A DNA stretch of 64,000 bases. It comes from a virus (lineage: Duplodnaviria > Caudoviricetes). Within the stretch, counting starts at the first letter, position 1, and each line of letters begins with the position of its first letter. Where the stretch lies: positions 84,095 through 148,094 of IMG/VR virus record IMGVR_UViG_3300021255_002065; one strand, written 5' to 3'. Positions 6,083 to 52,883 of the stretch are shown here, piece after piece. Under the pieces are notes generated by a model, which saw only the letters and a program-made list of their open reading frames with translations, was not told the origin of the DNA and searched no databases. The translations under genes and the position numbers were made by a program.

Positions 6083-6087
6083 TCATA

Positions 6088-7854: not shown

Positions 7855-7855
7855 G

Positions 7856-7984
7856 TCAATCCTCCTTTTCTTTGATTCCATAATCCAATAAACAATATTC
7901 TTTGTACAAATAGTCCATTTGACTCATCGCAACATCAATCAATCCTTGTTCTTGTTCATATATGATATTATCAAAATAATTCAA
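7856..7984 (-). CDS. 42-aa mini-protein consisting only of the head-protein leader motif
   Basis: TTG start after GAAAGGG. MNYFDNIIYEQEQGLIDVAMSQMDYLYKEYCLLDYGIKEKED* fills the gap between two genes and is below the ORF-track cutoff. Confidence 0.6.
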   Translation of the reverse strand: MNYFDNIIYEQEQGLIDVAMSQMDYLYKEYCLLDYGIKEKED

Positions 7985-8004
7985 TTTCTTTCGCCCTTTC
8001 TGTA

Positions 8005-8763: not shown

Positions 8764-8787
8764 ATTACATCACACCTTTGTTAAAAA

Positions 8788-10275: not shown

Positions 10276-10293
10276 ATCAATACCTCCTTAAGA

Positions 10294-16909: not shown

Positions 16910-16934
16910 AGAAAACATCTCCTTTGGTATCATA

Positions 16935-23706: not shown

Positions 23707-24777
23707 TCAACGAATGTCGCTTGGTGTAATTGAAGAGTGTGCATGTTGGTTAATAAATGTTTTAACCGCACTTTGAATCTTATTACAGCTAATATACCAA
23801 CGCACGATGTTACCATGATCATTCCAATATAATTCAATACGGCATTTTGAATTGTCGTCCTTATCTTCATCTCTGATGATTGCATCAATACCACTTCTTG
23901 ATGCAGGTTTCTGTGTGAACACATTATCCAACTCTTCGAAAAACCGATTTAATGTCAAATTGTCAATAATCGGACGACGTTGATCATCACGACTGAAAAG
24001 TGGTGATGCTTGTTGACGTGCACCGTTGATCAACACATTCGCAATTGTTTGTATAATTCTCATTTCTTCCACGAAACAATTTCCAAGAATTGTCATAACG
24101 TGTGCATATTGTTGTGTCATATTTCGAGAATCTTGGAGTTGTTTCTCATCCAATTCCGTATCACGAATGACACGGATGGCTTCTCTTGACTTTACCAAAT
24201 TATCATACACATCATTGATGGCATAGTCAATGATATTATCAATGATTTGATCAAGAATTTTGAGATTTTGTGCAACTGGTATCATCCGAACATTGTTTGC
24301 CGTCATTCTCTGATATGCACGATGTAATCGATCCATATATCGATTTGCTGCTGTTACATGACCTGCCACATTTCGATCATATAATGTTTTCACATGACCA
24401 TCTGTAATCATCTTGACAAGTTGACTGTTGTTGAAATCATGAAGTACACTGATTACATTTTTATTCAACCATGCCATATCCCAAAAGATGGTACTCATAT
24501 GCTCGTCTCCATCCGGTGTATGTGTATTTGCATAACGAGAATCTTTCTTCATCTTTTCCAAGCGTTTCTTTGCACGAGTCAATTGTCCTTTACGAATCCA
24601 TCCAATAAATCTCGTGATAACTCTGGAAAAGAAATCAGCAGCTCGACGAATAATATTGACAGGTTGTGCAGCTTCCATGGTATATTCAGCCAATGCCATT
24701 TCTTTAATCAAGTTATTACCCATTTCCAAAAGGACATTCGTTGCATAATATTCTTCCATTGTCTCGATACTTACCAT
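23707..24777 (-). CDS. Virion head protein, leader-bearing paralog family
   Basis: Leader ...NVLLEMGNNLIKEMALAEYTME|A; helix IIRRAADFFSRVITRFIGWI. Confidence 0.65.
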   Translation of the reverse strand: MVSIETMEEYYATNVLLEMGNNLIKEMALAEYTMEAAQPVNIIRRAADFFSRVITRFIGWIRKGQLTRAKKRLEKMKKDSRYANTHTPDGDEHMSTIFWDMAWLNKNVISVLHDFNNSQLVKMITDGHVKTLYDRNVAGHVTAANRYMDRLHRAYQRMTANNVRMIPVAQNLKILDQIIDNIIDYAINDVYDNLVKSREAIRVIRDTELDEKQLQDSRNMTQQYAHVMTILGNCFVEEMRIIQTIANVLINGARQQASPLFSRDDQRRPIIDNLTLNRFFEELDNVFTQKPASRSGIDAIIRDEDKDDNSKCRIELYWNDHGNIVRWYISCNKIQSAVKTFINQHAHSSITPSDIR

Positions 24778-24780
24778 TTA

Positions 24781-25917
24781 TCACACCTCCTTTAATGAAG
24801 CCGGATTATGGTCAGGACCCAGTGTCCATCTCATCCATTGTAAAATGATGACTTGAATTTGTGTTACATACATGAATGCACGACCAAGATCTGTCATGGC
24901 ATGCACATATGCTTCTTGACGACGCTGGATATCTTGTGAACGATTCAGATTCTGGCTCGCCAAATTATGAGCTTGCTGTCTCATTTCTGGAATGCCTTTA
25001 CGAATTAATTCCAAAGATTCTTTGATCGCTTGATTTGTCACAATGATGGAATCCAAGAAGACATCCACGTTACGTGCATCACCACGTTTTGCATGTTCGG
25101 CTTTCATCTTAAGAATTTCACCAGTATTATTATGATCTACATAGTTTCCATTGTCACCTCTTGCTTTTGCAAGTTCGATATCCACATCACTGTCTTTACC
25201 AATATCATGACGATGTTTCAATGGACCGTGACCGTTTATGCTACTTAGATGGCGGATTTCATCATAAGAATCTTGTAACTTCTCACGAAGCTTTCCGATA
25301 TTTCTTGCAACTTTTACGAAATCGGAGCGCTGATCGAAAACTGTTACATTTGCATCAACTCCGTTTGCACGTGCAACAGCGTTGTTCGGAACAAACATGA
25401 TCATATAATACATTAATGTGTCACGTGTCGGACCACCCATGTGTGATGTATGCACGTTACCTCCAGCAGACAGACGAGGTTGTCCAAAATTAATTCCACT
25501 ACCATTGGAATGGTGTTTTCCGATATCATTTAATCCAATCACATCTGATACGTTTTCTTTGTACCATTTGTAATCAACCATGATTCCTTCGAATACATCA
25601 TTCTTTTTATAATTATCCAGATTGCGAATGCGTCTGGCAAGTTTGTCCGCATGTGCACTGAGAAAATGGGAACGGATTCTGTTGATGATACGAGCAAACC
25701 AATCAATGATACGATTAATAGTTGGAACATGTCCGTCATCTTGTATTGTTTCATTATGACGTTTTTTGTTACTACTACCGCCTTCTTGGAAGATATCCGC
25801 TTCTTCCATATAATATTCTTTTACTAATTGAATACCGAGCTTATCCAGTGTCATCAATTCAGATTCCAACTGGAGATCACCAAGGTCTTCAAGTGTTGTT
25901 AAGATTTCTTCCGTCAT
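24781..25917 (-). CDS. Virion head protein, leader-bearing paralog family
   Basis: Leader ELMTLDKLGIQLVKEYYMEE, IFQE|G site, helix INRIIDWFARIINRI. Confidence 0.65.
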   Translation of the reverse strand: MTEEILTTLEDLGDLQLESELMTLDKLGIQLVKEYYMEEADIFQEGGSSNKKRHNETIQDDGHVPTINRIIDWFARIINRIRSHFLSAHADKLARRIRNLDNYKKNDVFEGIMVDYKWYKENVSDVIGLNDIGKHHSNGSGINFGQPRLSAGGNVHTSHMGGPTRDTLMYYMIMFVPNNAVARANGVDANVTVFDQRSDFVKVARNIGKLREKLQDSYDEIRHLSSINGHGPLKHRHDIGKDSDVDIELAKARGDNGNYVDHNNTGEILKMKAEHAKRGDARNVDVFLDSIIVTNQAIKESLELIRKGIPEMRQQAHNLASQNLNRSQDIQRRQEAYVHAMTDLGRAFMYVTQIQVIILQWMRWTLGPDHNPASLKEV

Positions 25918-25931
25918 GTTAAATCACCTCT

Positions 25932-26414
25932 TTAATTAGATACTTGATATTTTCGGAGATATAATCGATTTAGTTTGTCATATGTGATACCAATAATCAC
26001 TTCTGGTATTTCTGTATTTGCAGTAATGTAATCAGAACCTTTAATGACAACGCGTAACTCATTGCAAGATTGATATGTTTTATTGATATAGACTTCGATT
26101 TCAATCCCAGTTAATTCTAATCGATTACATTGATCATAGATTGCATTTTTTATCTTTGTCGGAATCGTATTATCATCAGAATATTCAAATAAATATTGTT
26201 CGATATCAATTCCCAATTCAGGTATACTTGGATATTGACCCGGTTTCATCATCAGTAATGTGACAATGACATTACAACACATTTCAAATGTGGAAATGAT
26301 TTTTGGTTTATGAAATTCATCAATATCCATGAGTGCATCATATCCAAGTAACTGAACTGTGGAAGGATATCTAGCATTGACTTCCGCCAAAGTGATTCCT
26401 TTTGTATCAAGCAT
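25932..26414 (-). CDS. Baseplate wedge protein, gp25/GPW-like
   Basis: LLMMKPGQYPSIPELGIDIEQYLFE fits the gp25 pattern L.T.PGE..F.PxFG..L..LLFE. Confidence 0.7.
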   Translation of the reverse strand: MLDTKGITLAEVNARYPSTVQLLGYDALMDIDEFHKPKIISTFEMCCNVIVTLLMMKPGQYPSIPELGIDIEQYLFEYSDDNTIPTKIKNAIYDQCNRLELTGIEIEVYINKTYQSCNELRVVIKGSDYITANTEIPEVIIGITYDKLNRLYLRKYQVSN

Positions 26415-29678: not shown

Positions 29679-30389
29679 TTATTTCTTGATGATTTTGCCA
29701 TCGGAGATTCCAAATACTTCTCCGAGTTCCTTTGACATCAGATACCACCTTTCTTCATACTCACCCTTATAGTGGTGAGCCACATGATATGATGAAAGTG
29801 GATATACATCCTTGTCCTCCAATGGACCACAGGTCCACTCTGGGCAGCCATAGCGGCCGCGTAAATATGCTCTTCCGGCCACGAGGCCTTTTGATTCAGC
29901 GAACATGCCGAAACATGCGCCTTCATCAAGATGCCCGTCGTGACTCAGACATTCCTGATTTCTCAGGTTTGCCTTTTTGAAGCTGACCCATTCTCCCCAG
30001 AGGCCATCTGCCTCTGACTGCTTTTCAGCAGCTTCAGCAGCAGCCTGAGTTTCCTTGACCCACTCACTGTTTGGGTGTACAGTGATGAGGTCTGCTGAAC
30101 CAGCACCTGCGTGATGCAATTCGAAAGTGTCAAATACACCCTTTGATACATTCACGCATAATCCTGCCACCGTCCAGAAACTATCCATTCCTGCAATGGA
30201 TTTTCTTGAAACCTTGCATTTCAGCCCTCTAGACGCAAGGAATCCCTTGAACATTTCTAATGTAGAAATGTACTTGTGTCCAAGATCCCAATCGAACTTT
30301 GCGTATTGGGATTCTTCCGGGTTCTTGCAATCTTCAATCTCATAAAATTTTTCCCAAGCCTTGTAAAGTGCAGAATTGAATTGTGTCAT
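29679..30389 (-). CDS. Hypothetical (probable early/accessory) protein
   Basis: Start moved to MTQFN after AAGGAGG. Higher GC than neighbours; own AT-rich upstream region and terminator. Confidence 0.65.
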   Translation of the reverse strand: MTQFNSALYKAWEKFYEIEDCKNPEESQYAKFDWDLGHKYISTLEMFKGFLASRGLKCKVSRKSIAGMDSFWTVAGLCVNVSKGVFDTFELHHAGAGSADLITVHPNSEWVKETQAAAEAAEKQSEADGLWGEWVSFKKANLRNQECLSHDGHLDEGACFGMFAESKGLVAGRAYLRGRYGCPEWTCGPLEDKDVYPLSSYHVAHHYKGEYEERWYLMSKELGEVFGISDGKIIKK

Positions 30390-30553
30390 AGTAATTCCTC
30401 CTTTTCGGAATCCCCAATGATCGACTCGGGTATATATGCATTCAACCTGAGTATACCATGACATGATCATGGAGATATAATATTATTATTGATATATTTC
30501 TATATCATATTAATTATATTTATATGAAAAAATAAAATAATAGAGACAGATGA

Positions 30554-30573
30554 GGTGGGCCAATTGGCCCACC
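30554..30573. promoter_or_regulatory. Perfect palindrome GGTGGGCCAATTGGCCCACC in a divergent intergenic region
   Basis: Member of the recurrent GC-rich palindrome family. Confidence 0.5.
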
Positions 30574-30646
30574 AAACGAGATGTTAACTTTGTCCATATA
30601 CCTTTTATATATGGAGAAAAATTATGTAGTAAAGGAGATTTATCAT

Positions 30647-33600
30647 ATGCAATTAAATGAGATAAAGTATGATGCGAAAAATAATGAGCCAAAACGTGAA
30701 TTTGCATTCAGTCAAGAATTCCCGAATGAGATTGAATTGGCATTAAAAGCATTTGATCGCGTCTTTAAAGAATTGACATCCATCTCCAATGGGAAGATCG
30801 AATTCTCCGAAGAATATGGTGTTGTCAATAACTTGTACAAGTTCCGTTATATTACACCATCTGATGTTGCAACTTACACTTCTAATCTAATTAAGGTATT
30901 GAAGAATCACATGATCTGTCCGCATGTGACAGATTTACAGAAGTTTTCTGTTGTATGTGCAAAGCAATACGTGGAAGACCATGGCTGTGTTCCAATTGAA
31001 CATTCTTCCATCTATGGTTTGTACAATTACACCACTGACAATATGACGCTACGAGATTTGTTGGTTCTTTGTGAAAATGACTTCTATCATACCACGGTTG
31101 TTTCTAGATTTGAAATGCAAGAACGTGTGAAAGTGATGAAGGAAGATTATAAAAAGATTGCCGACATGCATTTCAATACCAATATCATGAAGATTGTGGA
31201 TGGTTTACCGAAACTCATCACACAAACTGATTTCTTGGAATTAACTTATGTGGAACAGAAAGCAGTTCAAACATTCATTGAAGAATTCATTCTGTTTACG
31301 ATTATGCTGAATACAATCATCATGAGTAACATGATCTTCTTCTGTGTTCCAAAATCCACATATGATACAAAATTCATTGAAAAGAAAGAGCACGTGGATT
31401 CCAACACATTATTGGATGATGCCGATATGGACGATGGTGGATTGTATACGGAAGCAGTTGACACATCGAAATATAAACCTGTATACATTGTTCTGATGAG
31501 TGGAAACGGTGCCATATCAAAAGCGGTACAGAAAACCACACTCAGTTCCATATCACATGCTGGAATTTCATTTGATTCTTCCATGAATCGAATTTATTCA
31601 TTCGGCATGTTCAATAAGAATCGTACCGAAGACGCTCCACGTAAAAATGGATTCCGTATTGATTCTTTCTTTACGGAAAATCACAAAGATGTCACCATGA
31701 GTGTATATGCCGGATACATGTCAAATGAAAATTATAACAAAATGAAATCTTTTGTGGAAGATAATTATGTCGGTGATAAAAAGACGGATTATTCATTGGG
31801 AACAATCTGGAAGCAGTTGTGGCATTCTGACAAAGAATCTCGAAAACCGAAAGACATGGCATTTGTATGTTCCACATTTGTCGATCGTGTATTAAAAGAA
31901 GCTGGCGTAAATGTTACTGGAAAGCACCTACCATCCCCACAAGACTTCGACAGAAGTATGGCAAATGACATGGTGCATTTCGAACGTGTGTTCAATGGAA
32001 AACCCGAACACTTCGATGAACAAGATATGCTGGATCGTGTGAAGAACTTTGCAAAATATAAGAAAACCAGCAACGCAGATGCTGTGGTAACAGAAGCTGT
32101 CGATACATCGAAAACAAAACCGATTTATGTGGTATTGACAGAGGGTGTGGAATTTGTATCCGACCAAGTAAAACGTCACACGCGTTCTCGTTATTCCCAT
32201 TCCGGTTTGTCATTTGATGATTCCTTGCATCATGTTTATTCATTTGGCTTAATGAATCCCGTGAATAAAGACACAATTGTTCGAAATGGTTTCCGTATGG
32301 ATGATATGTTCTCCGACCATCACAAGGGTATTCGATTCACTGTCTTTGTTGCATTTGTTTCCAATGATAAATGGAATACGATGAAGAAATATGCAGACCA
32401 TGTGAAAAATAGTCCTAAGTCTAAATACTCACTTGGTATTATTTGGAGACAATTGTGGAATGATGAAAAACCACATAAGAGTGATACCGCACCTGATCAT
32501 GAACTAAAAGAAGTTTGTTCCACCTTTGTCAATAGTATTCTGAAATCTGCGGATATTGATTTGACGAAAAAGGTACTTCCAGCACCTGCTGATTTTGAAG
32601 CAAACATGCTTGTGAGAATGAATCAATTCAGTCAAGTGTTCTCTGGCACATCTGATCAATTCAAGATGGATGAATTCCGTTCTCGTGTAAAAGACTTTGC
32701 AAAACGTGAAGAAACCAAGAAACTTGCAAAAGGTGATGTCATTACAGAATGCTGCTTATTAAAGACCAATCGTTCTCGTCACTTCAACAAGATTCCTTTT
32801 GATATCAATATGAGAAATATTGTATTGCAAGATATGCATCCAAAGTTCAAAGATACGGTTGCAGCAATTGAATATATTACAAAAGACACACGTTCCCCAT
32901 TTGCACAACTCATTTATCGTTATGGCAGTCCTTCCAAGGTATTAGATGGAATGGATGGTATGATGATTTGTCGTATGTTTATCAACGATCCATGTGCAAG
33001 ATGCGGATGTTATGATGAATATGAAAATCAATTACATCAAGCCGACTTCCATACGGATGTATGTTGGTTAGATCGTATTGCGTTTGGTAACAATTTCCAA
33101 GATGGTAATTACAGAACCGATGCATTAGGATTGGAACATCGTCATCCGATTAAACAAACATTGGAAACGTTGTATCACATGTTCAGTGAAACAAGACTGA
33201 AAACGAAAGAAGAATTGTGTAATCACATTCTCAAGATTGCACATGTGATGAAAGGCATCATTGACTGTTATGGAAGTAACGGATTATACAATTGGGAACT
33301 GGTACGTGATATCTTGACTGTATTGGGTGAAATCATGACAAGAAGCATGATCAAACTATATGACAGACATATGGCTTTGGTTGTATCTGATAACATGGAT
33401 GATGTGGATGCTCCTGGATATATGTATACAGAAGCATTTGTATTGGAAGCAGATGAACATGAACCAAAGGTTGTGGAAACTGGTAATGACGGAAAACCAA
33501 CTGGCGGTGGTGGAAATGGTCAAGTGACATCTGCACAAGCTGAACAAAAGAAAAGCTGGTGCAAACGGATGCTTGATGAATTCACCAAATGGGTACAAGG

Positions 33601-34606
33601 TACCTTGACGAAAGTTGCTGAAAAATTCAAAGGTAATTATAAAGCACAAGTGGGTTATGTTGCTGCAAATAAGACAATGAATGAACAGATCAAAACAGAT
33701 TTGGGAAATGGTTCATTCAAACCAAAAGTTGAAGATTGGCCGAAGTATAATATTCCCATCAAAGAGATTGGACAGAAGAAATTATCCGAGGTCATCAAAC
33801 CTTGGTTGGATGGTACGGCAAAAGAACCGCTTACAGCACTTAGTGTGAAGAAAGCATTCTATCCAGAAGCAGTTGCAGCTGTTATTACAGAATCTTATGT
33901 ATTGGAATCTGGTCAAACAACACAAATTCAAGCACCACAAGGACAACCCGCAAATGTTGGAAAGGCAGCACTTGCGGCAAAAAATGTGAAAGCAAATTTA
34001 AATGCAGCATTACAATCCAAAATAGATGCTCCAAAGAAGTTTGAACCAGACAGCGAAAATGGTAAGAAATTACAAAATTTCTTCTTGTTTGGTAAACCGG
34101 ATGCATCCAATGCTAACTATTCCAATGAATTAACTCCGGAATTATGGCAAGATACCATTAATAATATTCTGAATTGCGACAAAGCAGTTTCCGTTGGTAT
34201 CAAAGAAATTACTGCTGATATCAAATCCACAAGTGATGAATTGAAATCGAAATTGGCTGCCTTAAAAGAAGCAAATGCAAACGCCGGTGAAGCACAAGGT
34301 GATGCTGCAAATGCAAATAACACGGGTAATGCAGATATTACTCGCTTGGAAGATCTGATTAAAATTGTTACCGAAATTTCAAATGAATATAGTATTGGAT
34401 TTGCTCACAGTATGCAAGATGCATTCTTTGTGACTTCTTACAAATTATATTCCGATATTATCAAAAAATACAAAGATGCTTCTGGTAGCTTCGAGCAGCA
34501 ACAACCAAATGCCAATGCACAACCGGCACAAAAACCAGCATCTGCAAACGCAGCACCAGCAGCTCCTGCTCAGCCGGCCGCAAATGCACAAGCTCAACCC
34601 GCATAA
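30647..34606 (+). CDS. Multidomain virion protein with two permuted NlpC/P60 (YiiX/YebB-like) papain-fold domains
   Basis: Start MQLNE after AAAGGAG. Tandem ~215-aa repeats with His (SHAGISFD, SHSGLSFD) before Cys (FVCSTFV, EVCSTFV). Putative protease sites LYTE|A, VVTE|A, VITE|C, FVLE|A. Confidence 0.75.
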   Translation: MQLNEIKYDAKNNEPKREFAFSQEFPNEIELALKAFDRVFKELTSISNGKIEFSEEYGVVNNLYKFRYITPSDVATYTSNLIKVLKNHMICPHVTDLQKFSVVCAKQYVEDHGCVPIEHSSIYGLYNYTTDNMTLRDLLVLCENDFYHTTVVSRFEMQERVKVMKEDYKKIADMHFNTNIMKIVDGLPKLITQTDFLELTYVEQKAVQTFIEEFILFTIMLNTIIMSNMIFFCVPKSTYDTKFIEKKEHVDSNTLLDDADMDDGGLYTEAVDTSKYKPVYIVLMSGNGAISKAVQKTTLSSISHAGISFDSSMNRIYSFGMFNKNRTEDAPRKNGFRIDSFFTENHKDVTMSVYAGYMSNENYNKMKSFVEDNYVGDKKTDYSLGTIWKQLWHSDKESRKPKDMAFVCSTFVDRVLKEAGVNVTGKHLPSPQDFDRSMANDMVHFERVFNGKPEHFDEQDMLDRVKNFAKYKKTSNADAVVTEAVDTSKTKPIYVVLTEGVEFVSDQVKRHTRSRYSHSGLSFDDSLHHVYSFGLMNPVNKDTIVRNGFRMDDMFSDHHKGIRFTVFVAFVSNDKWNTMKKYADHVKNSPKSKYSLGIIWRQLWNDEKPHKSDTAPDHELKEVCSTFVNSILKSADIDLTKKVLPAPADFEANMLVRMNQFSQVFSGTSDQFKMDEFRSRVKDFAKREETKKLAKGDVITECCLLKTNRSRHFNKIPFDINMRNIVLQDMHPKFKDTVAAIEYITKDTRSPFAQLIYRYGSPSKVLDGMDGMMICRMFINDPCARCGCYDEYENQLHQADFHTDVCWLDRIAFGNNFQDGNYRTDALGLEHRHPIKQTLETLYHMFSETRLKTKEELCNHILKIAHVMKGIIDCYGSNGLYNWELVRDILTVLGEIMTRSMIKLYDRHMALVVSDNMDDVDAPGYMYTEAFVLEADEHEPKVVETGNDGKPTGGGGNGQVTSAQAEQKKSWCKRMLDEFTKWVQGTLTKVAEKFKGNYKAQVGYVAANKTMNEQIKTDLGNGSFKPKVEDWPKYNIPIKEIGQKKLSEVIKPWLDGTAKEPLTALSVKKAFYPEAVAAVITESYVLESGQTTQIQAPQGQPANVGKAALAAKNVKANLNAALQSKIDAPKKFEPDSENGKKLQNFFLFGKPDASNANYSNELTPELWQDTINNILNCDKAVSVGIKEITADIKSTSDELKSKLAALKEANANAGEAQGDAANANNTGNADITRLEDLIKIVTEISNEYSIGFAHSMQDAFFVTSYKLYSDIIKKYKDASGSFEQQQPNANAQPAQKPASANAAPAAPAQPAANAQAQPA

Positions 34607-34627
34607 TGAATGAAAGGAGAATTCTCC

Positions 34628-36820
34628 ATGTTGAAATATCAAAAGGAGATTGTCAACATTCCCGAATTTAATCAACATGCAAAACAGAAAGTAGAAGAAA
34701 TCATATCCGGTTCGCCGGATATGATTACTGCTTTGGAATGCGTTGGTGCCATGTATGGTATTCCACCCACACATTTCACTGTTGAGCCAGAGATTAAAAC
34801 ATTACGAATTGTTGATGATCATGTTATGACACCACCAGATGTTCGTCCGAATACAAAAGCAATCGTATGTAGTATTGGTGGTGTATTAGATCATATCTCA
34901 CAGAGAGTCAATGATAAATTAGACGAATGCCATGATGCAGAAACGAATGAAGGAAGATTACATCCTCATGTTTCTCAAAATGCAAATCCCAATAAAGGAG
35001 AAGTCATCGAACGTCATGTAGATGCAAATGGTGACGAAATTCTCGTATATGATTCTGGATTGATGGATCTTCCCAATACAAAAGAAGGACATCTAAAAGC
35101 AGATGAATTACGTGAAAAGAATAAAATACCAGAATTCAAACAAGATGAATTTAATAAGAAAAAGGATGATTACTTCAAAAAAGAAGATGCGATTGAATTA
35201 GAATTCATGGCAAATATTGATTTGGATTTGGCATGTGATAATGAACCACGTCCAACTGATATGGCAAAACTCATTCAAGAAAATGCATTTCATTTGGATT
35301 TGATTTCCCATTATCATGATACGGATTATCTTGGTTATGAACTGTTACAAGAACAGGGATTTGATTATGTAAAACCAACAGAATCCTTTGCTTTGGAAGC
35401 GGGTGTGGAAAATGAGAAACCCAAGGTCAATCCAGAAGATATCAAACATATGAAGTTTGACAATACCCATATTACAAATGCAATCAAGTGTTTCAATATG
35501 GCACGTGACGAACAAGCCGACAAAGAAAAAGGTATGTTTGATTTGGATCGATTCACATCTTCTCAACATTACAAGCGTGGCATCAATGAATTGGAGAAAC
35601 AGTTTGATTGTAAACTCAGTGTGCATTTCAAAGATAATGTAAAAGAAGCAGATAAAACCAATCTGTTCACATTAGTATTCGATCACCAGCATTCTGATAA
35701 GATTTATGTATCCAAATCCAAAGGTTTCCAATTAAATGGATTACCCATCACAATTGTTTGTGTAAATAATGCAATCGACGAAGAGATGACAAAGAATGCA
35801 GATAAGGATCTATTTGGTCAATTCATGTGTGCTTCCTTGTGTCATGAGATATTCCATAATGTTGTAAATGCCATCAGATGTAAAACGAACATGTTTATTT
35901 ATACATCTACAAGTGCAATGGCAATGGCTTTAAATACAACAGATGCTGGTACACGTCGAGAGATCTTTTCTAAGTTTGCAGATACCGTTGTAATCCAAGG
36001 CAAGAATCTGAATGATATGGAAAAGAAGAAACTAATCAAAAAGCTTTGTTACATTTCTGCATTGTCTGATAACCAACAGGAATTGACGAAGATCCAGAAT
36101 GCATTGGATCATTCTAATTCCATCAGTGATGCAGATCAACAAGTGGATGCATTGATTGCTCGATATGAAAAAGCAATTGCACAATATCAGAAGAAGATTC
36201 CACATGCTACCAAGAAAGGGAATAAATACATCAATAATCCAAGTGGTTATAAAATCTTAAATAAGATTGCAACTGGATTAAGTTGTTCCATCATCGGTGC
36301 TCCGATTGGATTACCGATGTTAAAGCTATTACCAAACAGAAGTGATGCGGCATTGGCACAAGCATATGCGGATTATCTGAATCATACCAACAAAGAAGAA
36401 TACTATTGTGACATGTTTGCTGGCATGTATAATCTTCCATTATCATTCACCTATGGCTATACCAAACGTGACTTTGCAGCAAATGATATTTCCGATGATC
36501 GTTTGAAGTATTTACAAGATTTGGAAAAGCAACTCCGTCAGTTTACCTTATCACCATATCCGACAAATAGTGAGCGGAACTATGCAGCTTACCAAATTGC
36601 AAAAACCATTCTGAGTGGAAAAGAAAAGATTTCACCCGAGGTAAAACGGTATTGTGAATGGATTGTCAATAACTATTCCAAGATTAGCAGTGCAAATGTG
36701 GAAAATAATTATAACAAGACAACATTTGATCCAAAAGAAGCGCATGACTTAGATGAACATGTACAGAATTTAATTCTGAATAATAGCATTCCTGTGACGG
36801 AATCATATCGAATGAATTGA
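34628..36820 (+). CDS. Virion protein with a zincin-like metallopeptidase motif
   Basis: LCHEIFHN (HExxH) and downstream EEYYCDMFAGMY (E..AD.FA-like third-ligand motif); FALE|A site. Confidence 0.65.
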   Translation: MLKYQKEIVNIPEFNQHAKQKVEEIISGSPDMITALECVGAMYGIPPTHFTVEPEIKTLRIVDDHVMTPPDVRPNTKAIVCSIGGVLDHISQRVNDKLDECHDAETNEGRLHPHVSQNANPNKGEVIERHVDANGDEILVYDSGLMDLPNTKEGHLKADELREKNKIPEFKQDEFNKKKDDYFKKEDAIELEFMANIDLDLACDNEPRPTDMAKLIQENAFHLDLISHYHDTDYLGYELLQEQGFDYVKPTESFALEAGVENEKPKVNPEDIKHMKFDNTHITNAIKCFNMARDEQADKEKGMFDLDRFTSSQHYKRGINELEKQFDCKLSVHFKDNVKEADKTNLFTLVFDHQHSDKIYVSKSKGFQLNGLPITIVCVNNAIDEEMTKNADKDLFGQFMCASLCHEIFHNVVNAIRCKTNMFIYTSTSAMAMALNTTDAGTRREIFSKFADTVVIQGKNLNDMEKKKLIKKLCYISALSDNQQELTKIQNALDHSNSISDADQQVDALIARYEKAIAQYQKKIPHATKKGNKYINNPSGYKILNKIATGLSCSIIGAPIGLPMLKLLPNRSDAALAQAYADYLNHTNKEEYYCDMFAGMYNLPLSFTYGYTKRDFAANDISDDRLKYLQDLEKQLRQFTLSPYPTNSERNYAAYQIAKTILSGKEKISPEVKRYCEWIVNNYSKISSANVENNYNKTTFDPKEAHDLDEHVQNLILNNSIPVTESYRMN

Positions 36821-36830
36821 GGTGACAAAT

Positions 36831-38528
36831 ATGACATTGAATGATTATATTCTCGATCAAGTAATGGAAGCAAAAGAAAATGAGTTGGAAACAACACAAA
36901 AGGTGTTAGAATATCTTGTGACAGAAAGTATGAAAGAATGGGAATATCTTGATCACTGTATTACCTATCACAAAGATCCAACACTCGTTCAAGAGTCATT
37001 TTTAAAGAAAATACACACAGGTGTGAAAGATACTGCGGGAGGCATCCGCAGTATCATCACAAGACTTCGTGCATTGACTCGTCGAAATCTTGTGGTATTG
37101 AAAACATTGTTTTCACATGTAAAAGATGTTACAGAAGGATTCAGGGGTAAATTCCGCAAGAGTGGTGCTAAGAAAAGCGCGTCTCAAATTGCACATGAAA
37201 ATCTTCGTAAGAAATTGGATCCTGAGAAGAAGATGGCAGAATCACAAGCACGTGTAAAAGTACCATATGAAGGAGACATCAAACAAGATGAGATTGAATT
37301 AATTAATTCCGCAATCTTAATTAAAGAATTTGATGATGATAACAATTTCGAAGTGGATTTGATGGGTGTAAACTATGTGAAGAATGATCGTGGTAAAGTA
37401 AGAGCTGTTTCTGATAAAGGAGAAGGAGTTCCTTCATTGGCATCTCTATTCGTTTATACAAACTCCATGATTTACTTCATCAAACATCCAAATGAAATGG
37501 AAACATTATGTGAATTGATTACTCTGGGATTCAAGATCACAAATGGTGAACAAGAAATTGCACCAGCAGAATATGCCAAGAAAGTTAATAAATTGACCAG
37601 TGCTGCATTCAATAAAGCAAATGGTATTGCTGCTGGTGGTACAAGATTAACCATGAAAGAACTAACGACATTCCAATCCAAATTGAACAATTTGGAAGAA
37701 CAATTGGACTTTGCGCAAAATGGTAATAACAAATTGAATGATGTGGATACAAGTGTCATTCAAGCTTTGAATAATTTGGTTCACATTACAGAACATTTTC
37801 AGTTTGGATTGTCTTCCTTATCAAATGCAATGCAAAAAGTACATCTGATTGATTTGAAATACATGAACTCTATCACTGACAGAAATGTGTTGTCAAAGTT
37901 TGTATATGATTGCATTCAGAATGGTATTCCACCCAAGTATATCGCATACAATACATGGTTAATCGCAAATGAAAGCATTCGTGGAAGTGCATCCAGATAC
38001 AAACCCGTCGGTGGTCAAACACGTTGTGTATTCTTCCCGAATGACAATAAAAAGGAAATTCTTAAAATTGCCACATCTGGTATTGGTATCACATCTAATA
38101 AGAATGAAATTCGTTTCTCAGAATTCTTAAAACGTTCCAAGGAACAAGAGATGATTGATATTTCCGCACTTGTTACAAATACTTATGCCGAAGATGCCAT
38201 ATTGGCAATGGAACGTGTTGTCGATAGAGTTGGAAAACATCCTGACTTACAGATTCTGAATGACATGAAATCAAAATATAAAGCATTTACTGATCGACAT
38301 CCTGAATTGAGATTGGTTGTTTCCGACTTTAATGATGGCAATGTCATGTGGTCGAGTGATAAAGATCGATGGATCTGTATCGACTATGGTCTTGGTAAAC
38401 GTAATACGCAGAAACAAGAAGTTGTTGACAAGAAGGCAAATAAAGCCATCAAGCAATATCATAAACAGAACGAAACAAATGATGATGGAGGAGAACCAAA
38501 GTCATTGAAAAATGTTGCAGAAGAATAA
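36831..38528 (+). CDS. Leader-bearing protein with a C-terminal protein kinase-like domain (kinase 1)
   Basis: VGGQTRCVF (Gly loop), ILKIA (Lys), NKNE (alphaC Glu), MERV, SDFNDGNVMW (catalytic loop), CIDYG (DFG-like); LVQE|S site. Confidence 0.8.
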   Translation: MTLNDYILDQVMEAKENELETTQKVLEYLVTESMKEWEYLDHCITYHKDPTLVQESFLKKIHTGVKDTAGGIRSIITRLRALTRRNLVVLKTLFSHVKDVTEGFRGKFRKSGAKKSASQIAHENLRKKLDPEKKMAESQARVKVPYEGDIKQDEIELINSAILIKEFDDDNNFEVDLMGVNYVKNDRGKVRAVSDKGEGVPSLASLFVYTNSMIYFIKHPNEMETLCELITLGFKITNGEQEIAPAEYAKKVNKLTSAAFNKANGIAAGGTRLTMKELTTFQSKLNNLEEQLDFAQNGNNKLNDVDTSVIQALNNLVHITEHFQFGLSSLSNAMQKVHLIDLKYMNSITDRNVLSKFVYDCIQNGIPPKYIAYNTWLIANESIRGSASRYKPVGGQTRCVFFPNDNKKEILKIATSGIGITSNKNEIRFSEFLKRSKEQEMIDISALVTNTYAEDAILAMERVVDRVGKHPDLQILNDMKSKYKAFTDRHPELRLVVSDFNDGNVMWSSDKDRWICIDYGLGKRNTQKQEVVDKKANKAIKQYHKQNETNDDGGEPKSLKNVAEE

Positions 38529-38539
38529 GAGGTGATACT

Positions 38540-40153
38540 ATGGAAGAATTAGAATATTTCTGGGAGTGTATGGTGGAATCCAAACAGAATGTGTTTGATG
38601 CAATCGTTGCAGAAAATGAAAAGGAACATATGTTGGTGGAACAATATCTGATGAAACAAGCAGAAGGTAGAATCACATTGGAAAGTTCTGATATGGGAAT
38701 TCGTCTATGGCAATTACTTAAGAAAACGAGTAAAGCCACAAGTGGTATTGCCGATCATGCAGTCAACTTGTTAAAGGGTATTTTCCATGTAAAAAATGGA
38801 AGTAAAAAACCAACAAAAACTCCAAATGCAATTGCACAACAAGTTGTACCAAGTTCCAAACTTCCAAAAGCACAACAGGAAGTGGAGAAGAATTTGAAAA
38901 CTCCATTCAAAGGAAAAGAGAATGTGGTATTAAGTGCAACTCCTATTTTTATTAAGGAAATTACACAAGATGAAGGGTTATACATCGGATTATTCGGTGT
39001 TAACTATATCAAGAACGAAAAGGGACAGTTGGAACATGTTTCCAACTCCCATGGTATCAAGGGATTGGAAGACAATACCATCATCTACAAGAACATGGTG
39101 TATTATATCAAACATCCAGAAGCATTTGAAAATCTTGCAAGGATTGTGGAACAAGCCGGTGATTTGGTAGATGGTGGAAATGTTGACCAAGCAAAGCTTC
39201 GTGAAGCCATCAAAAAGACGGTTGCGAAGAGCCATGCTCCCGGTCGTGAATTCAATGCTGGTGGTACGAAATTAACCATGAAGGAATTGACAACATTCGC
39301 TGCTAAAGTGAATCAGTTAACAAATGCAATGGACAAATTCCAGAATGGTAATAATCACTTGAATGGATTTGATTCTGAAACAATTACGGCAATGAACCAA
39401 TTGGTTCGTGAATTGGAAACTTGTCAACATGGTATCAATGGTTTGGCAAATGAGGTTGGTAAGCTGTACATGATCAAAGCACAATATGTGAACTCTATCA
39501 CGGATAAAAATGACTTGGCAAAGTTTGTGGAAATGTGTATTGATGCTGGTGTACCACCAAAGTTTGTTGCATACAATACATGGCTGATTGCAAATGAAGA
39601 AATCCGTGGTGATAAAGTAGACTTTAATAAAGTGCCAATGGGACAAACCAGAATGGTGCTCTTCCCGAAGGATAAAAAGATCATCACCAAGATTGCGTTT
39701 AGTGGTCGTGGATTAACTTCTAACAAGAACGAAGTAAGAATGAGTGAATTTATCCAGCGGAGTAAAGAAGAGGATATGATCAAGATTGCTGCTCCGATTG
39801 TTGGAAAATATGGTAAAGACTGTGCAGTTATTGATATGGAACGTGTTGTCGATAAAGTTGGGAAACACCCCAATCCAAAAATGTTAAATCAGGTAAAGGG
39901 GCAGTTCATAGACTTTGTACAACGTCATCCTGAATTGAGATTGGTGGTTACCGACTTTAATGATGGAAATATCATGTGGTCGAGCGATCGTGATTGTTGG
40001 GTATGTATTGACTATGGCTGTGGTCAACGTGATAACATTTCTGAAGAGAAACTGCAACAACGTGCTGAGAAGAAACAAGCGGCATACAAAACTCGCACTG
40101 GTAAAGATAAAATATTAGATGTTACGGTAGGTGATGATAATGACAACGATTGA
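38540..40153 (+). CDS. Paralogous leader-bearing protein kinase (kinase 2)
   Basis: MGQTRMVL, ITKIA, NKNE, MERV, TDFNDGNIMW, CIDYG; similar to 36831-38528 along its full length; ITLE|S site. Confidence 0.8.
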   Translation: MEELEYFWECMVESKQNVFDAIVAENEKEHMLVEQYLMKQAEGRITLESSDMGIRLWQLLKKTSKATSGIADHAVNLLKGIFHVKNGSKKPTKTPNAIAQQVVPSSKLPKAQQEVEKNLKTPFKGKENVVLSATPIFIKEITQDEGLYIGLFGVNYIKNEKGQLEHVSNSHGIKGLEDNTIIYKNMVYYIKHPEAFENLARIVEQAGDLVDGGNVDQAKLREAIKKTVAKSHAPGREFNAGGTKLTMKELTTFAAKVNQLTNAMDKFQNGNNHLNGFDSETITAMNQLVRELETCQHGINGLANEVGKLYMIKAQYVNSITDKNDLAKFVEMCIDAGVPPKFVAYNTWLIANEEIRGDKVDFNKVPMGQTRMVLFPKDKKIITKIAFSGRGLTSNKNEVRMSEFIQRSKEEDMIKIAAPIVGKYGKDCAVIDMERVVDKVGKHPNPKMLNQVKGQFIDFVQRHPELRLVVTDFNDGNIMWSSDRDCWVCIDYGCGQRDNISEEKLQQRAEKKQAAYKTRTGKDKILDVTVGDDNDND

Positions 40154-41378
40154 TGAAATTGTACAAGAACAAGAGATGTCCACAGTTATTGCATTATTGG
40201 AATATTATCAAAAACAACTGGACTTATCCGATTATGAAACGGACGTGTATGTGGAGCACGTCCGTAATATTGGTATGACAACTCCTTCCGAAAAAGCCAG
40301 AGAAGAACAGGAGAAAGAAGAAGTAACAAATACTTCAAACAAGAAAGAATCTGTTGATGATAAACAAAGTCTTGGTACTAAAATCAAATCGGGAATTTCC
40401 AAATTGATCAATATGATTATCAATGGATTTAAAAAGATTATTTCAAAGATAATGTCGATTGGAAAATCGGAAACAAAAGTCACAGATATGATTGTGAACA
40501 ATCCAGACGCTTGTAAAGAAGCTGGCGATAAATTACAACAGATAGCAAAGTCAAAGGTGACGCAGGAAGCCGCAACATTAACAGACGTTATCGCTCATAA
40601 TAGATTTAAAGATCTCAATAAATTAAGCCCTGCTGAAAAAGCCGATCTCGTCCGTTATTATGATAAACAGCAAGCTGCCAAGAAAGCAGCAGAAGATGCA
40701 GCAAAAGATGCAGCTGAGCGAAAAGAAGCGATATCTGATGCAGTGAATTCAATAAAGAAATTTGTTCCATTTGGTTTATTAAGAAATATTGGTATTGGTG
40801 CAGTGATTGCATTATGTGCAACTTTATTCATTCTGCTTTATAAAAGGAAAACCAATTATCAATTACCAAGTGTAACAGATATTGGTCGTTCTTGTGTAGA
40901 GCTGAATTCACAATTACAAAAGTCCATGAATGGAAATGGACTCAAAAATGTCACAATCAATCCAAAAACAAAGGACTACATGACACGTGTTGCAAACTGG
41001 AATAAGAGATATACTAAGAATGAACCAGAATTTGAATCAAAGCATTCCGAATTCGAATTGACCAGAGAACAAGAAAAAATATTTGTTGATGCAGTTTATC
41101 TTGCAGCATCTGCAAAGAATGATCGATTCATCGGTGTGCTACAAGATTCTATTGGGTTATTAAAACAATTCAATGCTGTCATTAAAAAGAGTAATGGGAT
41201 TGTGGTAAACCATTTGGTTGATGTTTCCAAACAATATGCAAATTTCATCATTGGAATTAATAAAGCAATCACAGTAGGTTCTGATCTAATCAAAAATATG
41301 GGATTATCCTTACAACAAATTCGAGGATACCAAAATCAGAAAGAACGTGATTACAAACCTTCGAAAGCAATTATTTAA
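40140..41378 (+). CDS. Virion head protein, leader-bearing paralog family
   Basis: Leader EMSTVIALLEYYQKQLDLSDY, helix KIKSGISKLINMIINGFKKII, hydrophobic IGIGAVIALCATLFILLY. Confidence 0.65.
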   Translation: MTTIDEIVQEQEMSTVIALLEYYQKQLDLSDYETDVYVEHVRNIGMTTPSEKAREEQEKEEVTNTSNKKESVDDKQSLGTKIKSGISKLINMIINGFKKIISKIMSIGKSETKVTDMIVNNPDACKEAGDKLQQIAKSKVTQEAATLTDVIAHNRFKDLNKLSPAEKADLVRYYDKQQAAKKAAEDAAKDAAERKEAISDAVNSIKKFVPFGLLRNIGIGAVIALCATLFILLYKRKTNYQLPSVTDIGRSCVELNSQLQKSMNGNGLKNVTINPKTKDYMTRVANWNKRYTKNEPEFESKHSEFELTREQEKIFVDAVYLAASAKNDRFIGVLQDSIGLLKQFNAVIKKSNGIVVNHLVDVSKQYANFIIGINKAITVGSDLIKNMGLSLQQIRGYQNQKERDYKPSKAII

Positions 41379-41392
41379 GGAAGTGATAATCA

Positions 41393-42379
41393 ATGATTGA
41401 TATTGAGCAAGTAGTAATGGAATCAGAAATTGATGTATTATTGGAACAAACTTGTTTATTACAAAAAGAATCCATGTTATCAGATTATTATGTTGAAGCT
41501 GATGAAGTTACTGCCAATGATGAATCACCAAAGAATGACAATATCTTGAAAAAGATATGGGGTGGAATTGTTAGGATTATCCAGGCAATTGGCAATTGGT
41601 TTAAAAAGTTCTTTGATCGTTTCAAGAAGAAACGAAGCGATGGAAACTTTACACCGAAATATATCAAACTAGATGAGAATGGGAATTTCAAATATTGCAT
41701 GTTTCCAAAATACAATGTAACTGATTCTACATTACCAGAACATCAACAAATCGAGAGTCAATTCCATTTACTATTGTCCTTTCTGTTTGAAGATGTCATG
41801 ACATTCAATTATACAAAACATAAATTGTTTGATAATTTCTTAACTGCATTAGAGATGTATAAGAAGAATCATGAAAAACACGTGAAAGAAATCGCTGGTA
41901 AAAAATTGAATATGACCAATCCAATTGGTAAAGAACGTGATTTGATTAAGAGATACACCAAACATATCTCAAAAGATTTCAAAATGGCAGGAAACTATCA
42001 AGCTGGTAATGAGAAACTGAACAAATGGGGAAATTATGCAATCAACCAAGGTGCGGAACATGCCATGATTGAAATCAAGAGTTTGGATGAAATCAAATTG
42101 GCTGATCAACATATCATGGGTGCAATTAATGAAGCAAATGCTTGTTATAATGATTTAAGAAGTGCTCTGGGAATGGGTGAAAATCAAGCACGACCTCAAC
42201 ATTACCTGTTATCCAAAGATATTGCAAATGATGTATTACAAGTATTAAATAAGATGCTTGAATATATCAAAGACTTGACAAAGATGTATGAAATGACACT
42301 TGGTCAAGTTCGTATTGATTTAATCAACATGATCGAATATCAGAAACATCATAAACAAAACAAGAAAACTCAAAAATGA
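41393..42379 (+). CDS. Virion head protein, leader-bearing paralog family
   Basis: Leader EIDVLLEQTCLLQKESMLSDYYVE|A; helix ILKKIWGGIVRIIQAIGNWFKKFF. Confidence 0.7.
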   Translation: MIDIEQVVMESEIDVLLEQTCLLQKESMLSDYYVEADEVTANDESPKNDNILKKIWGGIVRIIQAIGNWFKKFFDRFKKKRSDGNFTPKYIKLDENGNFKYCMFPKYNVTDSTLPEHQQIESQFHLLLSFLFEDVMTFNYTKHKLFDNFLTALEMYKKNHEKHVKEIAGKKLNMTNPIGKERDLIKRYTKHISKDFKMAGNYQAGNEKLNKWGNYAINQGAEHAMIEIKSLDEIKLADQHIMGAINEANACYNDLRSALGMGENQARPQHYLLSKDIANDVLQVLNKMLEYIKDLTKMYEMTLGQVRIDLINMIEYQKHHKQNKKTQK

Positions 42380-50801: not shown

Positions 50802-50882
50802 ATACATTCCTCCATATATAAAGTTTGTTATAAAGTTCAATAAGACCGATTGATAATTTTCATACTTAAGGGAGATGATATT

Positions 50883-52883
50883 ATGTTAGATGATACTTTA
50901 GTTGTAGAATCCATGTTAGATCAATTATACATGGAAAGTGGAGAAACACCTTCTCCACCACAATCTCAAAATGTAAAAGTAGCATTAGACAGAATTCTAT
51001 CAGTAGAACCAAAGGAGATTAATAAAACATTCTTGGAAAACTTATTCGCAGGACATCATGATCGTAAAACAAATACATTCACAGATCCATTGTTCAAACC
51101 AACTGCAAAGATTTTATTAACACCTGATCTCTATCGATACGTAAGGGAACCAACAGAAACCACTCTTGGGAGATTGGTATTGAATCGATACTTGTTGGAA
51201 CAATGGGGAATCATCGAAATGATTGGATATTGGAATAAAGAGATCGATAGCAAAGGATTGAGTAATTTAAATACAGAAGTCAACAATCTCGTGTTGGAAG
51301 ATAAGATCGATTGCGATACCTTGGTTGAATATGTAGATGCTCGTGATAGATTGGGATTCTGGTGTTCCGGATTCCTTGCAGTATCCATTACACCGGCTTT
51401 GTTGTTACCAATGGAGAATGTCAATAAACGTAAATTAGAATTGTTTGATGCACACAAAACAGAATTGGAATCTGATAATCCCGTTACACAGATTATGGTA
51501 AACAATGCCATTGAAAAAGAACTTGTTGATATTGTTCGTGAAAACCTGAAAGCGGATTCCGGTTATGACTTCTATCGAAGTGGTGATGCCAACTTGGATA
51601 ACAACTATAAGACGATCAACGTTATGAGAGGCGCGGTATTTGATGAAGCGACCAAAAAATACCATGTCGTGAAATCATCACTGATGGAAGGAATCAAACC
51701 CCATGACATCACACCATTTGCAAACTCCGTTGTTGCTGCCGCATATCCTTCTGCAGTAGGTACTGCGGAAGCAGGATATATGTCAAAACAATTAATCGCC
51801 TTAACACAATCAGAACACATCAATCCGGATCCAAACTCTGATTGTGGAACAAATGCAACCATTCCATTCTTTGTAACTGATAGAAACAAACAATACATTG
51901 TGTTCCGTAATATTAAAGAAGGAAATAAGATTAAAGAATTAACATTACATGACTTGGGAGATTATGTTGGAAAAACGGTACAACTATATTCTCCACAATG
52001 TTGCTGTAATAAAACAATCTGTGCAAAATGTGCTGGCACACTGTTCTATCGTATGGGTGGTGGCGATGTTGTGAACATCGGTTGTTTAACCTCTATTATT
52101 ACAAAGACCATTCTTGACAGAAAACTGAAATCAAAACATGACTTGTCTCAAAATGCCGGATTTATGGATCCAAAACGTGCATTCTTGAATGCTCCAGACT
52201 TTGTTGATGTAACAGAAGATGGTCATCTTCGTACAAAAAAACGATTGAAATTGTTTGTCCCAAAATATACAGATGAAGTGACTGCATACTATATCGAAGC
52301 TCGTAGCATGCACTGTATCGGTGTTATGCCAGCTAAGTTTTATGATGACCATGGAAATGAAATCTTATCCACATTAATGTCCGTACCAACCATGATTGAC
52401 TTGATACTATATCAAGATATCCAAGAAGATATGGATAATTACATTATCGATTATGAAGCTGGATCTAATGTTTGTTCATTGGCATTTGCACAAAACATTG
52501 AAAATGTATGTGACTATTTGAATTTGATTTATTTCCATTCTAAATTACCACTGATACCATATCATCTATACACCGATATGGAATTTCGTAATCTGGAATT
52601 AAATAAAATGGACTTGGAAGGACCGAGTATCATCTATGAATTGTTAGCTCGTAGATTGTGTCGTGATGGAAATGAATCATTTGCACTCACTTATGGAAAA
52701 AATCCAAACGTGGATCCATTAAGCTATACGAAACTTTCTTATCGTGAAGCCGTACAAAAGGCTGGTGCATTACAAGCGGTGTTATTCGAAGATATCTCCA
52801 AAGGTATCAATGTTAACTTGGCAAATACATTAAATGGGATTGAACCAGAAGACACTCCGTTTGATAAAATCATTCGTGCATAA
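50883..52883 (+). CDS. Virion RNA polymerase beta' C-terminal subunit (phiKZ gp80-like)
   Basis: TTLGRLVLN, bridge helix TAEAGYMSKQL, Zn site DCGT...LYSPQCC..ICAKCAG; N-terminal LVVE|S and LYME|S sites suggest packaging. Confidence 0.8.
   Translation: MLDDTLVVESMLDQLYMESGETPSPPQSQNVKVALDRILSVEPKEINKTFLENLFAGHHDRKTNTFTDPLFKPTAKILLTPDLYRYVREPTETTLGRLVLNRYLLEQWGIIEMIGYWNKEIDSKGLSNLNTEVNNLVLEDKIDCDTLVEYVDARDRLGFWCSGFLAVSITPALLLPMENVNKRKLELFDAHKTELESDNPVTQIMVNNAIEKELVDIVRENLKADSGYDFYRSGDANLDNNYKTINVMRGAVFDEATKKYHVVKSSLMEGIKPHDITPFANSVVAAAYPSAVGTAEAGYMSKQLIALTQSEHINPDPNSDCGTNATIPFFVTDRNKQYIVFRNIKEGNKIKELTLHDLGDYVGKTVQLYSPQCCCNKTICAKCAGTLFYRMGGGDVVNIGCLTSIITKTILDRKLKSKHDLSQNAGFMDPKRAFLNAPDFVDVTEDGHLRTKKRLKLFVPKYTDEVTAYYIEARSMHCIGVMPAKFYDDHGNEILSTLMSVPTMIDLILYQDIQEDMDNYIIDYEAGSNVCSLAFAQNIENVCDYLNLIYFHSKLPLIPYHLYTDMEFRNLELNKMDLEGPSIIYELLARRLCRDGNESFALTYGKNPNVDPLSYTKLSYREAVQKAGALQAVLFEDISKGINVNLANTLNGIEPEDTPFDKIIRA

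Follow-up and report, generated by a model that had tools for sequence, protein, structure and literature searches.

Two phage kinases, T7 gp0.7 (T7K) and JSS1_004, act on many host proteins by phosphorylation and counter defence systems; T7K was recently shown to disarm many bacterial defences as an early-expressed protein (PMC13645617). Both are made after entry, are unpackaged, and have a C-terminal shut-off/DNA-binding domain; the paper describing them mentions no packaged kinase. By sequence analysis, Iyer et al. 2017 identified a clade of kinases from which the entire C-terminal subdomain is missing. Its members occur in polyvalent phage proteins that are predicted to be co-injected with the DNA, and a T7-like role was proposed for the clade (PMC5512222). 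Among injected enzymes, T4 Alt modifies proteins of the host (PMC5512222). Together with other T4 internal proteins, the PF12699 inner-body proteins of phiKZ, and gp53/gp54 of SPN3US, it carries an N-terminal propeptide that is cut after x-x-Glu by a prohead protease (PMC5512222, PMC10052503, PMC13742148). The stretch analysed here (the window; 64,000 nucleotides [nt], positions 84,095 to 148,094 of IMGVR_UViG_3300021255_002065, a 148-kb IMG/VR virus record with an estimated completeness of ~55%) contains two tandem genes, K1 and K2, whose products each begin with an acidic leader and end in a minimal kinase domain. The reading favoured here, with somewhat more confidence than doubt, is that these minimal kinases are processed head cargo delivered into the host.

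The K1 coding sequence (36831–38528, + strand; 565 amino acids [aa], the length also of its homolog P0001) begins at ATG 36831, as the earlier note on this DNA had proposed. A ribosome-binding site, GAGGTG, lies at 36819–36824 with a 6-nt spacer to this ATG. The GTG at 36822, from which the open reading frame (ORF) finder began K1, falls inside the ribosome-binding site, and ATG 36831 is therefore the true start. The K2 coding sequence (38540–40153, + strand; 537 aa) begins at ATG 38540 behind another GAGGTG. K1 and K2 share 40% identity over 535 aa (E 4e-127), which rises to 61% in the last 190 aa and falls to 16% in the first 150. K1 opens with an acidic, helical leader and putative propeptide (36831–36995, + strand; aa 1–55, net charge ~−9) ending in LVQE/S (36984–36998), the slash here and below marking the predicted cut. 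A basic segment of ~90 aa follows (36996–37265, + strand; net +16, isoelectric point [pI] 11.3), which includes an amphipathic helix shared with other proteins of the phage. The middle region (37266–37829, + strand) has no assigned function, is the part most divergent between the paralogs, is modeled with low-to-medium confidence, and gave no usable match in an ESM feature search. In K2, the leader comprises aa 1–48 and ends in ITLE/S (38672–38686).

The kinase motifs are confined to the C-terminal part of each protein. In K1, the minimal kinase domain (37830–38405, + strand) consists of two conserved helices followed by GQTR (38013–38024), LKIA (Lys 38064–38066), SNKNE (Glu 38106–38108), DFNDGN (38325–38342), and IDYG (38379–38390). 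The counterparts in K2 are GQTR (39641–39652), TKIA (39686–39697; Lys 39689–39691), SNKNE (39719–39733; Glu 39731–39733), DFNDGN (39953–39970), and IDYG (40007–40018). Conservation was assessed in an alignment of 139 diverse family members with ~30% identity to K1, numbered from the ORF beginning at 36822 (numbering from the ATG is lower by 3). G398, R401, K415, E429, and D521 are invariant, and at least 90% of members retain Q399, D502, N507, Y522, and G523. These columns include the β3 Lys, the αC Glu, the D-x4-N catalytic loop, and the Mg-binding Asp of D-Y-G, and to judge from the alignment their conservation is far beyond chance.

An AlphaFold2 model of the last 232 aa, built from the 139-sequence alignment, has a predicted local distance difference test (pLDDT) score of 93. 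Searching this model against the PDB with Foldseek, a comparison with protein kinase-like (PKL) folds that the earlier note had suggested as a check, returned 86 matches at E ≤ 1e-3, and all of those listed are kinases: OspG (2e-5) leads, followed by Rio2, CK2, Lpg2603, NleH1/2, and Bud32, with APH(2″) also among the best structural matches. The full-length model found the same kinases. Viral predicted structures that matched are small uncharacterised phage proteins of ~140–200 aa and annotated phage or giant-virus kinases, and the ESM Atlas matches are, besides clusters of the family itself, one 191-aa cluster from Bacillota and 132–146-aa APH-type clusters from Verrucomicrobiota. Sequence profiles of the kinase part gave weak matches to kinases only (TTK, E 0.012; KSR; PknB; LegK4), and one fused family member scores above the Pfam ABC1 kinase cut-off. 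The elements of the PKL superfamily are thus present, with an N-lobe β-sheet and αC, a catalytic/Mg-loop core, and the full set of catalytic residues. The two conserved helices before the glycine-loop position (L357, F360, G368, P370, and N377) lie within the confident model and may buttress the kinase core. What follows DYG is short: 45 residues in K1 and 44 in K2, poorly conserved and charged, and 6 in a third paralog. In K1, this tail (38406–38525, + strand) has no counterpart in many family members. Since in many members only a few residues separate DYG from the end of the domain, there is no canonical C-terminal lobe (C-lobe), and the earlier note's description of a minimal PKL domain with almost no C-lobe holds, as does its account of tandem paralogs carrying each of the motifs that it named. 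The C-terminal ~190 aa almost certainly adopt a kinase-like fold, and the domain is in all likelihood an active phosphotransferase. Its atypical glycine-rich loop and missing C-lobe would also suit a pseudokinase that persists in an internal head protein for structural or binding purposes. Pseudokinases characteristically lose the Lys, the Glu, the catalytic Asp/Asn, and the Mg-binding Asp, however, and each of these is invariant or at least 90% kept in the same 139 members, which makes this alternative highly improbable.

The closest described kinases differ from K1 and K2 in sequence, in carrier, or in both. Like the clade of Iyer et al., the K1/K2 family lacks the C-terminal subdomain, keeps the residues for ATP binding and phosphotransfer, and occurs in stand-alone and fused forms in phage proteins predicted to be packaged and injected. 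The ESM Atlas neighbours of K1 and K2 also include APH-type clusters from Verrucomicrobiota, the lineage named for that clade (PMC5512222). The clade is reported from (pro)phages found in the Verrucomicrobia-Chlamydia group and of Bacteroidetes, whereas the K1/K2 family belongs to uncultivated jumbo phages. The clade is diagnosed by a Glu that precedes strand 2, by a Gln in its last N-lobe strand, and by an insert separating the conserved His from the Asp. Judged by eye from the description of the clade, these features do not obviously recur in the K1/K2 family. Its own motifs are GQ[ST]R, M-E-R, and D-x-[H/N]-x-x-N, and the Asp seems not to be preceded by a conserved His. The carrier also differs, being a cleavable leader of the phiKZ/T4 type in K1 and K2 and a MuF, portal, or metallopeptidase fusion in the clade. 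From these sequence comparisons, the family is treated as a lineage distinct from and analogous to that of Iyer et al., with a different carrier, and not as a new category. The earlier note had stated that no example was described, which was overstated in view of these C-lobe-less kinases in predicted injected phage proteins (PMC5512222); no experimental example of a head-packaged, injected kinase was found in the literature.

Among solved structures, Foldseek ranks OspG and NleH (PDB 4q5h, 4bvu, 4lrj, and 4o96) highest (E 2e-5 to 4e-4). Both are minimal kinases, ~160–200 aa long, that lack an activation segment and the C-lobe helices and reach the target cell ready-made. However, they share only 13–21% identity with K1 and K2, are absent from both PDB-sequence profile searches, and use a different delivery machine; OspG in addition requires host E2~ubiquitin for activity, and no counterpart of this is known for K1 and K2. 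RIO kinases and Bud32 rank high in both structure searches as compact kinase folds with a short C-lobe, but they are cellular ATPases of ribosome and KEOPS assembly with N-terminal domains of their own, no sequence-level match, and no phage context. T7K and JSS1_004 provide the functional precedent for the role proposed below; both have the motif DPV in place of DYG, and PHROGs gave no match to the T7K family. For the carrier, the head-internal proteins of T4, phiKZ, and SPN3US resemble the scheme proposed for K1 and K2 in forming paralog arrays in the structural region, in being basic when mature, and in being packed with the DNA. None of them has a kinase domain, and where the K1/K2 family matches PF12699 or Goslar gp65/phiKZ gp86, it does so below threshold and through the N-terminal module only.

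The earlier note had also seen an acidic leader and a hydrophobic-x-E site at the start of both proteins, and the wider family bears this out. The leaders have a net charge of −8 to −11 (pI ~4.1–4.4), the next 90 aa are at +10 to +16, and the predicted mature proteins have a pI of ~9. At the position of the Glu in LVQE/S, the 139-sequence alignment has Glu in 107 of the 123 occupied rows and Asp in 8 of them; the P1′ position is occupied by A, G, or S in 106 of the same 123 rows, and the residues before the Glu are mostly hydrophobic. Among 67 full-length members (~22% identity), only six columns are invariant, namely the site Glu (E58) and five in the kinase domain. An invariant Glu in a hydrophobic-x-E site followed by A, G, or S is the signature expected of a protease site. 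In SPN3US, a giant-phage prohead protease of related type cuts after A-x-E and removes the N-terminal propeptides of head and ejection proteins (PMC10052503). The source phage likewise encodes a candidate enzyme, a maturation protease of the phiKZ gp175 type (20373–21215, − strand), which matches Pfam Peptidase_S80 at 33.1 bits (model cut-off 23.4) as well as phrog_3014 and phrog_207 (head maturation protease). A T4-type prohead protease was considered for the same role, and the Peptidase_S77 model gave no match in the source record. K1 and K2 thus have a putative propeptide ending in a conserved x-x-Glu, and an S80 protease is encoded by the same phage; the alignments support the view that the leader and its x-x-E site behave like a conserved prohead-protease site.

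The leader is not restricted to kinases. Run against the same genome, a profile derived solely from N-termini of the metagenomic kinase family recovers ~ten unrelated ORFs by their own N-termini, and a Lys of the leader helix is invariant in an alignment of eleven leader sequences. The strongest non-kinase match (E 7e-14) is a downstream gene of the same operon (41393–42379, + strand; 328 aa), which has the leader (YYVE/A) and the amphipathic helix. Between it and K2 lies another operon gene (40131–41378, + strand; 415 aa) with the same leader and helix and an unrelated body. Two further leader-bearing ORFs of 356 aa (TME/A; 23707–24777) and 378 aa (FQE/G; 24781–25917) form a minus-strand pair (23707–25917) beside the baseplate wedge gene (25932–26414). 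Four more, of 851, 597, 495, and 534 aa (3527–6082, 6088–7881, 8788–10275, and 10294–11898; together 3527–11898, − strand), are interspersed with a virion structural protein gene (8005–8763). In the Bacillus phage AR9, the two best matches to the leader profile, g096 and g216, are both annotated as "virion protein", and g096 has LLNE/G followed by a matching amphipathic helix. With about one in 7–10 genes so labeled in the AR9 GenBank record, the label in two of two best matches is suggestive only. The module seems not to have been described previously as a head-targeting tag for AR9-like phages.

The same module gives faint links to head proteins of better-known phages. PF12699 (phiKZ_IP) is the only Pfam family matched by more than one of the 67 members (5 of 67; best E 1e-4, below the 27-bit cut-off). 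K1 and K2 themselves have no match to it. In searches of the source genome and four relatives, PF12699 scored 9–17 bits against the kinase ORFs and most other leader-bearing ORFs, its positions ~85–130 aligning in most matches to the helix past the site; in 41393–42379 the weak match likewise falls on the amphipathic helix. The N-terminal profile of the kinase family matches Goslar gp65 (E 3e-4), an inner-capsid vertex-complex protein homologous to phiKZ gp86 (PMC13742148). Taken with the S80 protease and the invariant site, these several weak links make head loading the most likely reading, and the sequence comparisons suggest that K1 and K2 are probably head-internal and processed by the protease.

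A number of observations weigh against the overall interpretation of K1 and K2 as processed, delivered kinases. The evidence on the family consists of sequence comparisons and predicted structures. No member was found in 50,697 deposited phage genomes, either by megablast of the region or by tblastn with K1, the K1 kinase domain, and the distant member P0060 (best E 0.3, in a Rak2-like coliphage). No Pfam (at E ≤ 1) or NCBI-type kinase model matches K1 or K2; the canonical Pkinase features HRD, APE, and GxGxxG are absent, and the domain stops soon after DYG. The glycine-rich loop (GQ[ST]R) is atypical, and TM-scores to solved kinases are modest (0.3–0.5). VIA-align places the small-molecule kinase APH level with protein kinases, which is compatible with either class of substrate, and Rio and Bud32, among the closest folds, act mainly as ATPases. 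Protein kinases, small-molecule kinases, and ATPases cannot be told apart by the predicted fold itself. An active phosphotransferase with a non-protein substrate (a small molecule, nucleotide, lipid, or cell-wall precursor; compare the APH, choline, and Kdo kinases) or an ATPase switch, packaged or not, is nevertheless considered unlikely, because the top of the Foldseek ranking is occupied by protein-kinase effectors likewise lacking C-lobe elements (OspG and NleH), the sequence-profile matches are protein kinases, and the large helical C-lobe that normally forms the substrate pocket of small-molecule kinases is missing here.

Further points on the same side concern packaging. K1 scores poorly against the leader profile (E 0.065), owing to an insertion in the K1 subfamily, and a profile of the source-genome leaders alone reaches phiKZ gp86 only at E 0.52. 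Every connection with known head proteins is weak or below threshold and depends largely on an amphipathic and an acidic helix, of which the composition can inflate scores. Promoter inspection around the operon did not establish late expression and gave no motif clearly tying it to other structural operons; the AR9 late-promoter consensus was not seen. In another alternative, K1 and K2 would be unpackaged cytoplasmic kinases like T7 gp0.7, merely encoded among structural genes, with an N-terminal module that served regulation, oligomerisation, or autoinhibition. The characterised phage protein kinases are all expressed after entry (PMC13645617), each connection drawn between the leader and virion proteins is weak and of a statistical kind, and, as noted, promoter inspection did not place expression late. 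Yet a private regulatory domain would sit poorly with a module common to ~ten unrelated structural-region ORFs, with an invariant Glu and a small residue at 35–60 aa from the N-terminus, with AR9 matches of which the best are annotated virion proteins, and with an encoded S80 protease. Unpackaged kinases are accordingly judged improbable.

The family comprises 283 representatives of clusters at 50% identity (exhaustive profile search, E ≤ 1e-3), mostly of 470–580 aa. Every source is a metagenome, with contigs that reach 225–279 kb, and cluster look-ups for ten diverse members gave metagenomic sources only. These are ~500-aa proteins of uncultivated jumbo phages; AR9 has no member, and a profile search of a 5.8-billion-protein set found close relatives only, none of them named. 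K1 has no Pfam match and matches only phrog_4301 (unknown function) in PHROGs, in which K2 has no match. A Pfam match of K2 to Exo_endo_phos_2 (E 0.007, below cut-off) lies on the kinase domain and was treated as spurious. The kinase gene occurs in several copies: a third paralog of 550 aa is encoded in the same record ~70 kb upstream of the window, and relatives have two or three tandem copies or two separate ones. In the long members P0156, P0129, P0137, and P0182 (882–1494 aa), the unit of site, helix, and kinase is embedded in a polyprotein. Their partner domains are GNAT, transglutaminase-like, and PoNi immunity-type, with GNAT and transglutaminase-like parts together in one member. Site and helix are internal there and lie at domain borders, and further hydrophobic-x-E sites followed by a small residue occur elsewhere in the polyprotein. 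P0129 has several hydrophobic-x-E motifs followed by G, S, or A, one of them ~10 residues before the PoNi domain, an arrangement that looks as if the prohead protease cut the polyprotein into separate cargo.

Copy number and fusions also bear on the possibility that K1 and K2 are head-internal and processed without being early effectors, the kinase or ATPase domain serving the phage itself. Such a protein might modify scaffold, inner-body, or portal proteins during assembly, or act in DNA packaging or ejection, and would stay in the capsid or act locally. The evidence from leader, site, and protease is the same for this alternative as for delivery into the host, the closest folds Rio2 and Bud32 are assembly-factor ATPases, and some high-copy Goslar virion proteins are not injected (PMC13742148). 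However, the expansion to two or three paralogs in a genome, which diverge and vary in their N-terminal halves, fits diversifying host targets better than an unchanging task in assembly, and the GNAT, transglutaminase-like, and PoNi fusions resemble conflict effectors (PMC5512222). A purely phage-serving role is therefore thought improbable as well.

Under the favoured reading of delivery into the host, leader and helix would take the precursor into the prohead, where the S80 protease would remove the leader and leave a basic mature protein of ~55–58 kDa packed with the DNA. The mature kinase would leave the head with the DNA, meet ATP in the host cytoplasm, and phosphorylate host or defence proteins ahead of phage gene expression; the divergent N-terminal halves of the paralogs would direct them to different targets. 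Tandem paralogs and the GNAT and PoNi fusions would then reflect an arms race over those targets. That K1 and K2 are ejected, early-acting protein kinases is proposed tentatively, as a step that falls somewhat short of an even chance. With equal reserve, they could be the first virion-delivered protein kinases, pre-loaded by means of a cleavable leader and acting on host defence, transcription, or translation before phage genes are read. If so, a ready-made kinase would act in the most vulnerable minutes of infection, and phosphorylation would join the activities injected from heads, which include ADP-ribosylation (T4 Alt), RNA polymerases, and anti-restriction proteins. The leader with its amphipathic helix is a candidate head-targeting tag for this phage group, and the K1/K2 domain illustrates, in a natural protein, how small a part of the kinase fold a conserved active site needs. 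Naming the unannotated family, with its 283 clusters, would improve the annotation of many metagenomic phage genomes.

The source phage is represented by a second record of 294.5 kb, which is of the same species, is rated 100% complete, and encodes a K1 with 98% identity. Genes for a split multisubunit RNA polymerase are present; the one that was queried (50850–52880) has its nearest relatives, at 32–34% identity, in the Bacillus phages AR9 and PBS1 and in Staphylococcus jumbo phages. The structural setting given in the earlier note is borne out by the genes nearby. The major capsid protein gene (14747–16933, − strand; phrog_20655) marks the head module, and tail-fibre-like genes, with the head and baseplate genes and the prohead protease gene, surround the kinase cluster. 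Two genes lie 5′ of K1 in the same plus-strand cluster (30581–36820) and encode proteins of 1341 and 736 aa. The gene order is kept, with products of 1396, 730, 571, 541, and 448 aa, in a phage whose K1 is 67% identical.

Neither upstream protein had a match in PDB sequence searches. The 1341-aa protein (30581–34606, + strand) has phrog_1128 as its sole match (E 4e-9) and contains a domain of ~190 aa that is duplicated internally, with a CSTFV motif kept in each copy. Its ATG at 30581 stands directly 3′ of a GC-rich hairpin, and the true start may lie further downstream. The 736-aa protein (34610–36820, + strand), directly upstream of K1, has an HEIFH motif and matched nothing in Pfam or PHROGs; its ESM Atlas neighbours include viral zinc metallopeptidase and Peptidase_M48 clusters, at scores below lead level.

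An AT-rich motif of ~20 nt, TAATATGATATAGAAATATATC, was seen upstream of four genes, at 30471–30580 and at three other sites in G000. The copy at 30471–30580 points to the minus-strand gene 29679–30470, away from the kinase operon. The motif is AT-rich like the AR9 early-promoter box AAATATATATTAT, but differs from it in sequence. A second motif, TGTATAT.ATTA.ATTGACC followed by a hairpin, occurs 5′ of genes such as 53615–54871, which encodes a clamp-loader-like ATPase.

Among the leader-bearing ORFs of the minus strand, the adjacent 3527–6082 and 6088–7881 are paralogs with a long Gln/Pro-rich linker between leader and amphipathic helix, and 6088–7881 has an extra copy of the amphipathic helix near its C-terminus. 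In AR9 (KU878088.1), the acidic leader, x-x-E site, and amphipathic helix are shared by g096 (79052–79858), g216 (184451–185569), g217, and g166, the last two being annotated as hypothetical. Finally, a 245-aa ORF (22947–23684, − strand) matches the RNA polymerase β fragment family phrog_3233 and the hydrolase family phrog_23439. It recalls AR9 g078, a fusion of an HD hydrolase with a virion RNA polymerase part, which the AR9 record describes as proteolysed, with virions containing the RNA polymerase part only.

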